Assembly: GCF_024653915.1 (NCBI RefSeq)
Contig: NZ_JANLGY010000017.1
Location: 51,088 to 115,087 of the forward strand
DNA from: Sulfuricaulis sp.
GTDB taxonomy: Bacteria; Pseudomonadota; Gammaproteobacteria; Acidiferrobacterales; Sulfurifustaceae
Reading direction: 5' to 3'
DNA: 64,000 nucleotides
Shown here: positions 9,552 through 52,339 of the stretch, one piece after another
Layout: each line of letters starts with the position of its first letter
How positions within the stretch are numbered: position 1 is the stretch's first letter
Translations under genes and position numbers: made by a program
Notes under the pieces: generated by a model
Databases searched by the model: none
What the model was told of the DNA's origin: nothing
What the model saw: the letters and a program-made list of their open reading frames with translations, nothing else

Positions 9552-10310
9552 ATGACGAAGCGTCGGCCACTGGTGGCGGGCAATTGGAAGATGAATGGCT
9601 CGCGGACGGAATCTGCGGCCCTCCTGGACGGAATCAAAAAAGGCATCAGTTCCACGTCCAAGGCAGAAGCGGCTGTGTGCCCCCCGTATGTCCTGATACC
9701 GTTGGCGGCCGAGAAACTGGCCGGGAGTGCGGTGGCTTGGGGCGGGCAGAACCTGTCGGTGCATAAATCTGGCGCCTTTACCGGCGAGATCTCCGGTCCG
9801 ATGCTCAAGGATTACGGCTGTACTTATGTTATCGTCGGTCATTCCGAGCGTCGCACGCTGTATGGCGAAAATGACGCCATGGTGACTGAGAAGTACGGTG
9901 CGGCCCAAGCCGTGGGATTGATACCTATATTATGTGTTGGCGAGACCCTGCAGGAACGGGAAGCGAATCAGACCGAGGCGGTTGTAGCGCGCCAGCTTGA
10001 TGCCGTGCTGAGCAAGCATGGCATCGCCAGTTTCAAGAATGCCGTGATCGCTTATGAGCCCGTCTGGGCCATCGGCACTGGCAAGACGGCGACACCCCAG
10101 CAGGCCCAGGATGTGCACCGTTTTATCCGCAGCCGACTGGCGACCAAGGATAAAACCATAGCGGAAAGCACGCGCATTCTTTATGGCGGCAGCATGAAGG
10201 GCAGCAACGCGAAGGAGCTTCTGGCCCAGGCAGATATTGATGGGGGCTTGATCGGCGGGGCGTCGCTGCAAGCGGACGAGTTCCTGACGATTTGCCACGC
10301 AGCCGACTGA
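9552..10310 (+). CDS. tpiA: Triosephosphate isomerase
   Basis: VAGNWKMN, VGHSERR, AYEPVWAIGTG, LYGGS and LIGGASL motifs. Confidence 0.99.
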   Translation: MTKRRPLVAGNWKMNGSRTESAALLDGIKKGISSTSKAEAAVCPPYVLIPLAAEKLAGSAVAWGGQNLSVHKSGAFTGEISGPMLKDYGCTYVIVGHSERRTLYGENDAMVTEKYGAAQAVGLIPILCVGETLQEREANQTEAVVARQLDAVLSKHGIASFKNAVIAYEPVWAIGTGKTATPQQAQDVHRFIRSRLATKDKTIAESTRILYGGSMKGSNAKELLAQADIDGGLIGGASLQADEFLTICHAAD

Positions 10311-10343
10311 CAATTGCATATCCATGTGCATCGGAGTTAATTG

Positions 10344-10691
10344 ATGAGAGACATAGTATTAGTTGTTGATGTCATTGCGGCCGTGGCGCTGATCGGCCTG
10401 ATCCTGTTGCAACAGGGTAAGGGCGCGGATATTGGCGCCGCTTTTGGCAGCGGCGCCTCGCAAACCTTGTTTGGCAGCCGCGGTTCGGCCAATTTTTTGA
10501 CGCGCACGACGGCAATTCTGGGAACGGTCTTTTTCCTCTCCAACCTGGGAATGGCCTGGTTGCATGCGCAACAGACGGTGCCAGCGAGCGTTACGAAGAG
10601 TGTGGTTATTGAACAGCCGGCAAAAACCGAGACGCCGGCACTACCCACCGATGTCCCCGCCGTGCCCAAGGCGCCCGAAGTGCCCAGGTGA
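10344..10691 (+). CDS. secG: Preprotein translocase subunit SecG
   Basis: LILLQQGKGADIGAAFGSGASQTLFGSRG...NFLTRTT; tpiA-secG-tRNA-Leu context. Confidence 0.97.
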   Translation: MRDIVLVVDVIAAVALIGLILLQQGKGADIGAAFGSGASQTLFGSRGSANFLTRTTAILGTVFFLSNLGMAWLHAQQTVPASVTKSVVIEQPAKTETPALPTDVPAVPKAPEVPR

Positions 10692-42674: not shown

Positions 42675-42886
42675 CGGGTTGCTCCGCCCCGCACCCTGGG
42701 TGACTTTTGTTTCGGCAAAAGTCACCAAAACCACTCCCCCCGGAGCGCGCGACTTCCTTCTCCGCTCCTCGCCCCACCGGGCGCTCGACCAACTCGCCGG
42801 GCGCGAAATACGCGCCTCGGGCTCAAACAGGGTCTCGCTTAAAAACTCCCGGCGGGGCTGCGGTGCTCGACGCGCGCTACGGGGTC
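42675..42886. repeat. About 210-nt multi-stem non-coding element upstream of ogt
   Basis: Perfect 11-bp stem GGTGACTTTTG/CAAAAGTCACC (42699-42726); long-range pairs ccccggagcgcgcg/cgcgcgctacgggg and ccccaccggg/cccggcgggg; inner GGCGCG-AAATA-CGCGCC. Confidence 0.75.
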
Positions 42887-42935
42887 TGAAGAAACCGTGG
42901 TGGCACTGATCGCTGTGCCCGTGGATAATGAATCC

Positions 42936-43481
42936 ATGCGGAACGGGAGAACATCCAAAGCCAGGGACTACGACGCGGTTGTGGCCACGCCCATCGGCCG
43001 GGTCGGGATCGTGGTGCAGGACGACGCGCTGGTGGACGTGAACTTTCTCGGCATGTCCGCCGCCTTGCAGGCCCCGCGCACGAACATGGCGCGCCGGGCT
43101 TGTCGCCAGATCCGATCCTATTTCATCAATCCCCGTCTTTCCTTTCGCCTTCCGTTGAAGCTGTCGGGGACGGCGTTCCAGCAGCGCGTGTGGCGCGCGT
43201 TGCAGCGCATTCCCGTGGGCCAGACGCTCAGTTACGGCGTGCTGGCGAAGAAACTCGATACCTCGGCACGTGCCGTGGGCAATGCCTGCCGTGCCAACCC
43301 TGTCCCCATCATCGTTCCGTGTCATCGCGTCGTCGCAGCGGGTTACGGCGATGTACAGGGAAGTACAAGTGTCGCGGGAAGCAGGAAGCTGAGAGCGACC
43401 GTCGGCGGTTTCATGGGCAAGCGCTCGGGTTCCCCGTTGAATCTGAAGCATTGGCTGCTGGAGCATGAGCGCAGGGAATAA
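42936..43481 (+). CDS. ogt: Methylated-DNA-protein-cysteine methyltransferase (Ogt family) with an extra loop
   Basis: FQQRVWRALQRIPVGQTLSYG, ARAVGNAC and NPVPIIVPCHRVV (active-site Cys) motifs, KHWLLEHE end; start uncertain. Confidence 0.93.
   Translation: MRNGRTSKARDYDAVVATPIGRVGIVVQDDALVDVNFLGMSAALQAPRTNMARRACRQIRSYFINPRLSFRLPLKLSGTAFQQRVWRALQRIPVGQTLSYGVLAKKLDTSARAVGNACRANPVPIIVPCHRVVAAGYGDVQGSTSVAGSRKLRATVGGFMGKRSGSPLNLKHWLLEHERRE
43344..43400. repeat. Palindromic element apparently inserted in frame in ogt
   Basis: TGTAC-AGGGAA-GTACA (43352-67) and GTCGC...GCGAC (43371-99); encodes YGDVQGSTSVAGSRKLRAT with atypical codons. Confidence 0.72.
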
Positions 43482-51055: not shown

Positions 51056-52339
51056 ATGGCGACCAAATACGTTAATGCGGTAATCTCGGAAGAAAACAAC
51101 GATAACAGTCTGCCCGTGCTGGACGGCACGCTCGGACCCAGCGCGGTGGACATCCAGTCTTTGTACTCCCGAAACGGCCTGCTGGCCTACGATCCCGGGT
51201 TCCGCTCCACCGCCGCCTGCAAGAGCAGCATTACTTTCGTGGACGGCGACAAGGGTGTGTTGCTTTATCGCGGGTACCCGATCGAGGAGCTGGCCGAACA
51301 CAGCGAATTCATCGAAGTGGCCTATCTGTTGATGCATGGCGAATTACCCAACGCCACGCAACGCAAAAAATTTGACGACGCGATTGGCAGCTACAACCTG
51401 CTGCATGAGCAGGTGCTCTCGTTTTACCGTGGTTTCCGCCGTGACGCCCACCCCATGGCAGTTATGGTCGGTGTGGTCGGCGCGCTGTCGGCGTTTTATC
51501 ACGATGTCATGAACATGCGCGACGCCGATGACCGTGAACTGGCGGCCATCCGGCTCGTTGCCAAAATGCCGATGCTGGCTGCGGCCAGCTACACTTATTC
51601 AATCGGCCGCCCGCAACGCTATCCGAACAACACGCTCGACTACGCCTCGAATTTCCTGCAAATGATGTTCGGCGCGCCGAACCGGGACTACGTCGTCGAT
51701 CCAGTCTTAGCGCGCGCGCTCGACGTTATCCTGATCCTGCACGCTGACCACGAACAGAATGCCTCAACCTCCACGGTGCGGCTGGCCGCCTCCAGCGGCG
51801 CCAATCCTTTCGCCTGCATCGCCGCCGGCATTGCCTCGCTTTGGGGCCCGGCGCACGGCGGCGCCAACGAGGCCGTGCTCAAGATGCTGATGGAGATCGG
51901 CAGCGTGGAGAACATCCCGAAGACCATCGACCGCGCCAAGGACAAGAGCGATCCCTTCCGCCTCATGGGTTTCGGCCACCGTATCTACAAGAATTTCGAT
52001 CCGCGCTCGCTGGTCATTCAGAAGCAGGCGAAAAAGGTTTTGGCGCATCTCGGCAAGGACGACCCGCTGCTGGAAATTGCCATGCGGCTGGAGGAGATCG
52101 CGCTCAAGGACGAATACTTCATCGAGCGCAAGCTGTACCCGAACGTGGATTTCTACTCCGGCATCTTGCTGCGCGCCATGGGCTTCCCCATGACCATGTT
52201 CACCGCCGTGTTCGCGCTGGCGCGTACGGCCGGCTGGGCCAGCCACTGGCTCGAGCTGCAGGGCGAATCCCACGGCATCGATCGTCCGCGCCAGATTTAC
52301 GTCGGCAAGACCCTGCGGCATTATTCGAAGAAAAAATAA
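51056..52339 (+). CDS. gltA: Citrate synthase
   Basis: [40 protein letters not shown] and YPNVDFYSG motifs. Confidence 0.97.

Follow-up and report, generated by a model that had tools for sequence, protein, structure and literature searches.

Ogt and its insert

The window, as the term is used here, is the whole 64,000-nt stretch of a Sulfuricaulis sp. contig that was analysed (NZ_JANLGY010000017.1, positions 51,088 to 115,087). It carries on its forward strand a gene for O6-alkylguanine-DNA alkyltransferase, ogt, with an insert just downstream of the catalytic motif. The features are as follows, in window coordinates.

42936..43481, + strand: ogt coding sequence, starting at the MRNGR methionine common to orthologues
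43317..43328, + strand: PCHR catalytic motif, Cys codon at 43320-43322; P128, C129, H130 and R131 are invariant columns
43341..43348, + strand: accompanying extra bases GGTTACGG (plus C at 43349), from filled versus empty alleles
43349..43399, + strand: two-hairpin repeat unit, mobile in our interpretation, 51 nt or 17 codons, Y-GAYGTRC...GAGCGRC, with the in-frame reading (G)DVQGSTSVAGSRKLRA(T)
43352..43367, + strand: hairpin 1, TGTAC / loop AGGGAA / GTACA, with double changes in 3 of the 5 helix 1 pairs across copies
43371..43399, + strand: hairpin 2, outer stem GTCGC/GCGAC, with compensatory changes in helices 2 and 3
43371..43399, + strand: interior of hairpin 2, a purine-rich 4x4 internal loop GGGA/GAGA and an inner stem AGC/GCT around GGA
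43404..43418, + strand: GGFMG motif, where the conserved Ogt sequence picks up again after the insert

The open frame around ogt reaches back to 42897 (ORF 42897..43481, + strand) and encodes PCHRVVAAGYGDVQGSTSVAGSRKLRATVGGFMG. PF01035 (DNA_binding_1) matches this protein at 87.5 bits against a cut-off of 27, covering profile positions 1-65 of 81, and the match ends where the insert begins, at residue 156 of the ORF. Similarly, alignments to solved MGMT, Ada-C and M. tuberculosis OGT structures (4bhb, 1sfe, 1eh6; E 1e-19 to 1e-12) follow Ogt up to PCHRV and are then lost, which places the insert between PCHRV and the G-[YF] motif. In MGMT this segment is the active-site loop, which lines the alkyl pocket and is functionally sensitive in known MGMT proteins.

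Ogt orthologues have the sequence PCHRVVA[AS]NGxGGFMG, and the allele in this genome has 18 extra residues at that point. In 120 close homologues, and likewise among the 22 Ogt genes from related genomes of the order (a count that omits two more distant MGMT-like matches), the loop consists of A[AS]NGx and leads into GGFMG; judging from these alignments, A[AS]NGx is the ancestral state. The insert is present in 2 of the 22 genes, namely in this genome (G000) and in Sulfuricaulis limicola HA5 (G014), a cultured type strain whose genome is complete, and it is therefore not an assembly artefact. More than 100 metagenomic Ogt homologues are without it, a few metagenomic alleles have it (P0001-P0004), and two others (P0006 and P0077) contain a second copy nested within the first in reverse orientation. 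The gene order rpsP-rimM-trmD-rplS-ogt-xerD is identical around empty, filled and nested alleles on orthologous contigs.

At the nucleotide level, empty alleles read GCx TCG AAC GGC xTx GGC and filled alleles GCx TCG GGT TAC GGC + 51 nt + xTx GGC, so that the extra bases and the element stand in place of the ancestral AAC GGC with a net gain of 54 nt. The ends of the unit were set by the unambiguous filled/empty junctions in cysS and dnaG, by nested copies and by flank statistics. Eight of the 17 element codons are rare in host genes: over 6,678 host-gene codons, the shares within synonymous families are 0.10 for GTA, 0.11 for GGA, 0.10 for AGT and 0.10 for ACA, while AGG and AGA each make up 0.01 of Arg codons.

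Much of this had been anticipated in the initial annotation. Its sequence for the insert agrees exactly with the translation of ORF 42897..43481 (+), its list of rare codons holds against the host-gene counts, and its statement that Ogt normally has few residues between PCHRV and GG(Y/F) is borne out by the A[AS]NGx of the orthologues, whose alignment, which it had proposed, defines the insertion and shows that the loop is not common to them. It had, however, drawn the element as 63 nt (43341-43403). The insert is real, but the mobile unit is 51 nt (43349-43399), and the 63 nt consist of this unit, 9 accompanying bases GGTTACGGC and one host codon.

An AF2 model of Ogt built from a 22-sequence alignment has a folded MGMT core and a low-confidence insert loop (mean pLDDT 68; pLDDT <50 at residues 135-166). 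The genome has a single ogt homologue (assembly 99.8% complete, 2.73 Mb). It is plausible that Ogt function is retained despite the insert, since this is the sole homologue and the catalytic motifs are intact; tolerance is nevertheless an assumption on our part, because the loop is sensitive in known MGMT proteins. That the insert might alter the access of alkyl substrates is speculation.

Just upstream of ogt lies another repeat (window 42692-42885, corresponding to contig C31:93779-93972), which is 92% identical over 195 nt to C29:39410-39610, the flank of another element copy, and which also partly matches contigs C19, C5 and C9. This is a different dispersed family.

A dispersed repeat with covarying hairpins

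An 81-nt query around the ogt site found 11 further places in the same 2.73-Mb assembly at 77-96% identity. Altogether, the genome contained 14 BLAST matches, 26 full-length copies by an iterated nhmmer profile and 29 by a covariance model. The consensus of the family is GATGTACAGGGACGTACAAGTGTCGCGGGAGGCAGGATGCCGAGAGCGACC, and all six of its frames are free of stop codons. An Rfam covariance-model search of 8 element loci gave no family at the element with E up to 1.

Across 24 aligned copies, 89.9% of the cells in the two hairpins were paired, with double changes in 8 pairs and 29 cells. This level was reached by 0 of 500 shuffles, and slid controls gave 13-46% paired. When folded alone, the insert segment has a mildly unusual DNA fold compared with shuffles (z = -1.9); because this single-sequence fold is weakly significant, the case for structure rests on the covariation. 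Compensatory pairs such as GTCGC/GCGAC to GCCGC/GCGGC (V to A, T to A) and GGCA/TGCC to GACA/TGTC change the encoded residues, and therefore it is the nucleic-acid hairpin that is conserved and not the peptide. Across distant Gammaproteobacteria the stems covary, and the loop sequences (CAKGGA, GGAYG) and internal-loop purines are conserved. The two stems that the initial annotation had read from the DNA, TGTAC-AGGGAA-GTACA and GTCGC...AGC-AGGAA-GCT...GCGAC, are thus backed by comparison of the 24 copies. Its proposed search for further copies yielded 26-29 in this genome and 0-140 in relatives, and what it had named as evidence against a repeat, protein-level conservation with no other copies, is the reverse of what was found, namely conservation of the hairpins and many copies.

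Copies lie in at least 17 genes of this genome, ogt included. The Pfam-confirmed hosts are genes for a FAD-dependent protein, CoaBC, DnaG, CysS, PurD, MiaB, HemN, a U32 peptidase, TrpF, MoaA, GltB, CopA, CopB, a ZIP transporter, Aat, a ferredoxin-reductase-type protein and Ogt. By their spans, the Pfam domain matches of CysS, PurD and MoaA exceed the profiles by 17, 16 and 17 residues, so in these proteins the insert is inside the conserved domain. Fifteen of 18 genic copies are in one orientation and frame, read as DVQGRTSVAGGRMPRAT (binomial P about 1e-9 against one in six). The MoaA and nested copies use the reverse frame (GRSRHPASRDT.TS.Y), and the Aat copy is in another forward frame. Around 8 of this genome's copies lie between genes, in some cases beside other repeat families. 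The initial annotation had envisaged an intergenic-type repeat turned into about 19 aa of protein, as in Rickettsia palindromic elements (RPEs). A dispersed in-frame repeat with 18 extra residues is indeed what is present, but most copies in this genome are in frame inside genes rather than intergenic. Since Pfam domains look split at such inserts, annotations and alignments are likely to contain artefacts caused by the element.

Some genic copies have features of their own. The one in the U32 peptidase gene (C19:92285-92342) contains a 9-nt internal tandem duplication GCAGGACGC in hairpin 2, which adds three residues and keeps the frame. At the 5' end of tilS (C21:42406-42456), a copy directly follows the stop codon of the upstream gene and puts GGGAGACAGGATG at the start of the frame, where it may provide a ribosome-binding site and start codon. 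The coaBC site is filled in this genome (C9:153148), and in three relatives (G005, G006 and G009; L091-L093) it has an unrelated insert of ~25-30 nt, GGCCCCGGCCTAAAGCATGCTGGGGCAGGCGCCGAAGC; insertion into this loop seems to have been accepted more than once.

For 14 genic sites, the joined flanks were searched in 20 other species of the genus and the orthologues aligned. At 12 of the 14, filled and empty alleles differed by exactly 51 nt. The exceptions noted were trpF (+54), the U32 peptidase gene (+60, with the 9-nt duplication) and the ferredoxin-reductase gene (+102, a nested pair). Almost every genic site was empty in the other species, moaA and ogt being the only two in common with S. 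limicola HA5, and most insertions in this genome are therefore recent. The filled/empty pairs at the 14 sites lacked target-site duplications, and terminal inverted repeats are likewise absent from the element, whose ends YGAYGT... and ...GAGCGRC are not inverted copies of each other.

A flank logo of 192 non-redundant copies revealed weak preferences and no clear target motif. The first base of the unit was a pyrimidine in 192/192 copies, the base following the unit was C in 80%, G stood at -1 in 55% and C at -3 and -4 in ~48%, these flank preferences being partly due to nested and tandem copies. Eight empty sites had no motif in common. Two patterns of self-targeting recurred in many genomes: a reverse copy at GTCG^CGGG inside another copy, and tandem arrays in which copies follow each other head to tail every 51 nt. 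Such arrays, 2-3 units long and exact in their period, were seen, for example, at G042 C48:341-493, G044 C181:7699-7851, G053 C130:12900-13001 and L137 (G016), in genomes of Rhodanobacter, Steroidobacteraceae, Thiohalomonas and Sulfuricaulis.

With the covariance model, the element was detected in 29 of 41 genomes of the order, with 0 to 140 copies and wide variation within the genus. A pattern scan of one genome per species gave, among the matches listed, Acidiferrobacterales, Chromatiales, Thiodiazotropha, Steroidobacteraceae, Rhodanobacter, Arenimonas, Thiohalomonas, Thiohalophilus, Colwellia, Gilvimarinus, Algicola, Oceanobacter and Serratia proteamaculans. The covariance model confirmed the full-length matches in scanned hosts, counting 104 copies in Thiodiazotropha, 91 in a Steroidobacteraceae MAG, 28 in Thiohalomonas, 11 in Rhodanobacter and 3 in Serratia. 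In many of these other hosts the copies are in short-ORF contexts, which suggests that they are mostly intergenic there. The element was not found in PLSDB plasmids or E. coli genomes. One MAG labelled Halobacteria (L210 / G052) had 32 copies and one labelled Spirochaetota (L187 / G051) had 4; mislabelled or contaminated bins are the probable reason, transfer being the alternative. No description of the element was found in the literature on RPE-like repeats and on Sulfuricaulis and Acidiferrobacter genomes, nor with its sequence and peptide strings, and it is a previously undescribed 51-nt, two-hairpin, six-frame-open family, widespread in Gammaproteobacteria.

Movement and maintenance of the element

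Two different hairpins, the lack of terminal inverted repeats and target-site duplications, strand specificity and tandem copies point to a single-strand mechanism of the HUH/Y1 type that recognises hairpins. A Y1-transposase partner was not supported: Y1_Tnp profiling of the 41 relatives and 10 further hosts gave no consistent co-occurrence. RAYT-like genes were present in all high-copy relatives. No Y1_Tnp was found in G056 (a complete 2.6-Mb genome with 23 copies), G048, G006 or G016, the last two having 15-22 copies. A covariance-model scan of 12 regions around the RAYT-like genes fetched found none flanked by the element. In one high-copy genome of another family (G030; L018, C73:1679-1853 and 10218-10347), tandem copies lie ~3.8 and 4.3 kb to either side of a RAYT-like Y1 gene, with similar 8.2-kb spacings on two other contigs, and this may be a composite unit.

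A larger parent element was also sought. The conserved flanks in G031, a candidate for such an element, were found to consist of nested element copies, and no full-length parent was found there or around the 'type B' copies of this genome. These latter copies (CTGTACAGGAAGTAC...GCGCAGGGATGCGC...; C9:164814 and C12:13340) adjoin other, unrelated repeat families and are at the centre of larger inverted repeats with periodic arms of the CGCAAAG type. Two further copies are close to tRNA sequences. One of them (C5:176172-176223) is in a degenerate tRNA-Gln-like duplicate just upstream of the real tRNA-Gln; it was not accepted as a copy inside a tRNA gene, as Aragorn made no tRNA call for the duplicate whether the element was removed or not. 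The other (C20:101884-101936) interrupts a duplicated tRNA-Ser 3' end (GGTTCGGAATCCT|element|TCCCTCTCCGCCA), and this duplicate looks like an att-site remnant.

The explanation that we consider very probable is that a non-autonomous mobile two-hairpin repeat inserted into the active-site loop of the sole ogt and is tolerated there, with at least 16 other housekeeping genes colonised as well. The 51-nt repeat entered ogt between the PCHR active site and GGFMG. The unit has 17 codons and no stop codon in any frame, so the gene is not broken, and the insert would be translated as about 18 extra Gly/Ser/Thr/Arg-rich residues forming a flexible loop that Ogt could tolerate. Surviving genic copies would be those filtered to one orientation and frame, as in RPEs. 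We infer the element to be selfish, that is, non-adaptive.

Could the insert be an ordinary lineage-specific loop under protein-level selection, its palindromy being coincidental? It is intact in several diverged ogt alleles, as such a loop would be, but this genome has the same 51 nt at more than 25 unrelated positions, in either orientation and not only within genes, the compensatory changes are non-synonymous, 8 of the 17 codons are rare and the orthologues have no such loop. The copies elsewhere in the genome had already ruled this reading out, and we give it almost no credence. It is somewhat less improbable, though still very unlikely, that the transcript loses the 51 nt or the ribosome passes over them, leaving mature Ogt with the ancestral loop. 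In T4 gene 60 the ribosome hops over 50 nt, and known bypass elements are of similar length. The length of the unit, its compact conserved structure and its strong orientation bias relative to host genes would fit such a process. Against this, a length of 3 x 17 nt, open frames and one codon phase in 15 of 18 copies would all be needless if the element were skipped, the opposite-orientation copies (moaA, nested) and the other-frame copy (aat) are also open in the host frame, and the consensus has no stop codon to hop over.

A more serious competitor, although we rate it as rather unlikely, is that the element is kept for a function at the nucleic-acid level, as a structured RNA or DNA site, a site bound by a protein of the host or of the element, a translational pause or an mRNA-stability signal; such a function would also be compatible with a selfish origin. 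The rare AGG/AGA codons and a Shine-Dalgarno-like GGGAGG run could be read in this way, as could the conservation of loops and internal-loop purines (CAKGGA, GGAYG) while stems covary, the possible ribosome-binding site and start codon that GGGAGACAGGATG supplies to tilS, and the ogt and moaA copies being far less diverged than flanking synonymous sites. However, close relatives have anything from 0 to 140 copies, nearly all genic sites of this genome lack the element in the 20 other species of the genus, the functions of the host genes are unrelated, no Rfam family was found, and near-identical ogt alleles are polymorphic for presence or absence of the insert.

The history of the ogt copy is not a simple one. 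In a tree of 79 Ogt proteins with the insert columns left out, the seven filled alleles are scattered and 7 changes are required, of which well-supported branches force at least 4. For example, P0002 (filled) and P0020 (empty) are identical over their shared length except for the last residue (E versus K), P0020 having 7 extra N-terminal residues. All filled alleles agree in their unusual variant AAGCAGGAAGCT and in the additional GGTTACGGC, and a single origin therefore follows. Compared among six filled alleles, the patch of 60 nt shows 2.6% difference (4.7% at third positions), as against 20% (33%) in the 240 nt upstream and 14% (26%) in the 84 nt downstream, so that the copy is about sevenfold less diverged than flanking synonymous sites. 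Divergence returns in the codons adjoining the patch, and no extended tract of low divergence surrounds it. The moaA copy behaves similarly between this genome and S. limicola HA5, with ~2/51 differences (counted on the alignment) versus ~24% in the flanks. In addition, three 'AESGI' alleles with GCA GAG AGC GGT ATT at this point retain GAGAGCG, the 3' end of the element, and have the following Ile codon in common with filled '...RAT-I' alleles. From their sequence, we read these as footprints of imprecise excision.

A neutral selfish relic alone does not explain the low divergence of the patch and the scattered filled alleles. Either there is constraint at the nucleotide level, or the patch moves between diverged alleles with sharp boundaries. 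Given the low patch divergence, the polyphyletic filled alleles and the GAGAGCG of the 'AESGI' alleles, we tentatively entertain the possibility that the element is a live mobile module adapted to coding sequences, self-targeting, spreading between diverged alleles or held near-invariant, and able to excise. If so, it would live in essential genes across Gammaproteobacteria in a homing-like manner or under functional constraint, and would not be a decaying relic.

Comparison with known repeat systems

To our knowledge, Rickettsia is essentially the one textbook case of palindromic repeats that have entered housekeeping genes in frame at high frequency, and there this is usually linked to weak selection in obligate intracellular bacteria. 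Nothing indicates that the element described here is related to RPEs in sequence; it is three times shorter than they are, is found in free-living sulfur oxidisers and occupies dnaG, cysS, gltB, purD, coaBC, moaA and ogt. These inserts are natural loop-insertion experiments in well-studied enzymes, and S. limicola HA5, with inserts in ogt and moaA, is a cultured type strain suited to their study.

A 2024 review of MITEs presents RPEs as an exceptional case (PMC10969869). As far as its summary of RPEs goes (Ogata et al. 2000, in PMC10969869), they and the present element are both hairpin repeats in frame in many unrelated housekeeping genes, with one preferred frame that gives a conserved peptide, and with host genes that are apparently functional. 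On the same summary, the element is set apart from RPE families by length (51 nt versus roughly 100-150 bp) and by host. Its hosts are free-living chemolithotrophic Gammaproteobacteria, whereas those of RPEs are obligate intracellular Alphaproteobacteria. Unlike RPEs, the element is also open in six frames, is frequently nested in itself or arrayed head to tail, and is apparently mostly intergenic in many other hosts.

Classical MITEs, among them intragenic ERIC and cyanobacterial MITEs (PMC10969869), are likewise small and non-autonomous and can form in-frame ORF fusions. The element differs from them in having neither terminal inverted repeats nor target-site duplications, and in-frame residence, occasional in MITEs, is the rule here. 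With REP/REPIN sequences, which RAYT (Y1 HUH) transposases mobilise, the element has in common that it is short, structured, high in copy number, free of terminal inverted repeats and target-site duplications and widespread in Gammaproteobacteria, with conserved single-stranded hairpins and inverted doublets. In contrast to REP/REPIN, it is built from two unlike hairpins instead of a single palindrome, and genes contain the majority of its copies in this genome. The RAYT-like genes fetched are not flanked by it, and such genes are missing in several genomes with 15-23 copies. PATEs derived from IS200/IS605 resemble the element in having a different hairpin near each end, no terminal inverted repeats or target-site duplications and a strand-specific architecture. 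The head-to-tail tandems of the element also fit a PATE-type insertion beside a sequence found at its own end. Unlike in PATEs, however, no conserved tetra- or pentanucleotide was seen 5' of its left end, where the flank logo gave weak preferences, its association with a Y1 transposase is inconsistent and no full-length parent was found.
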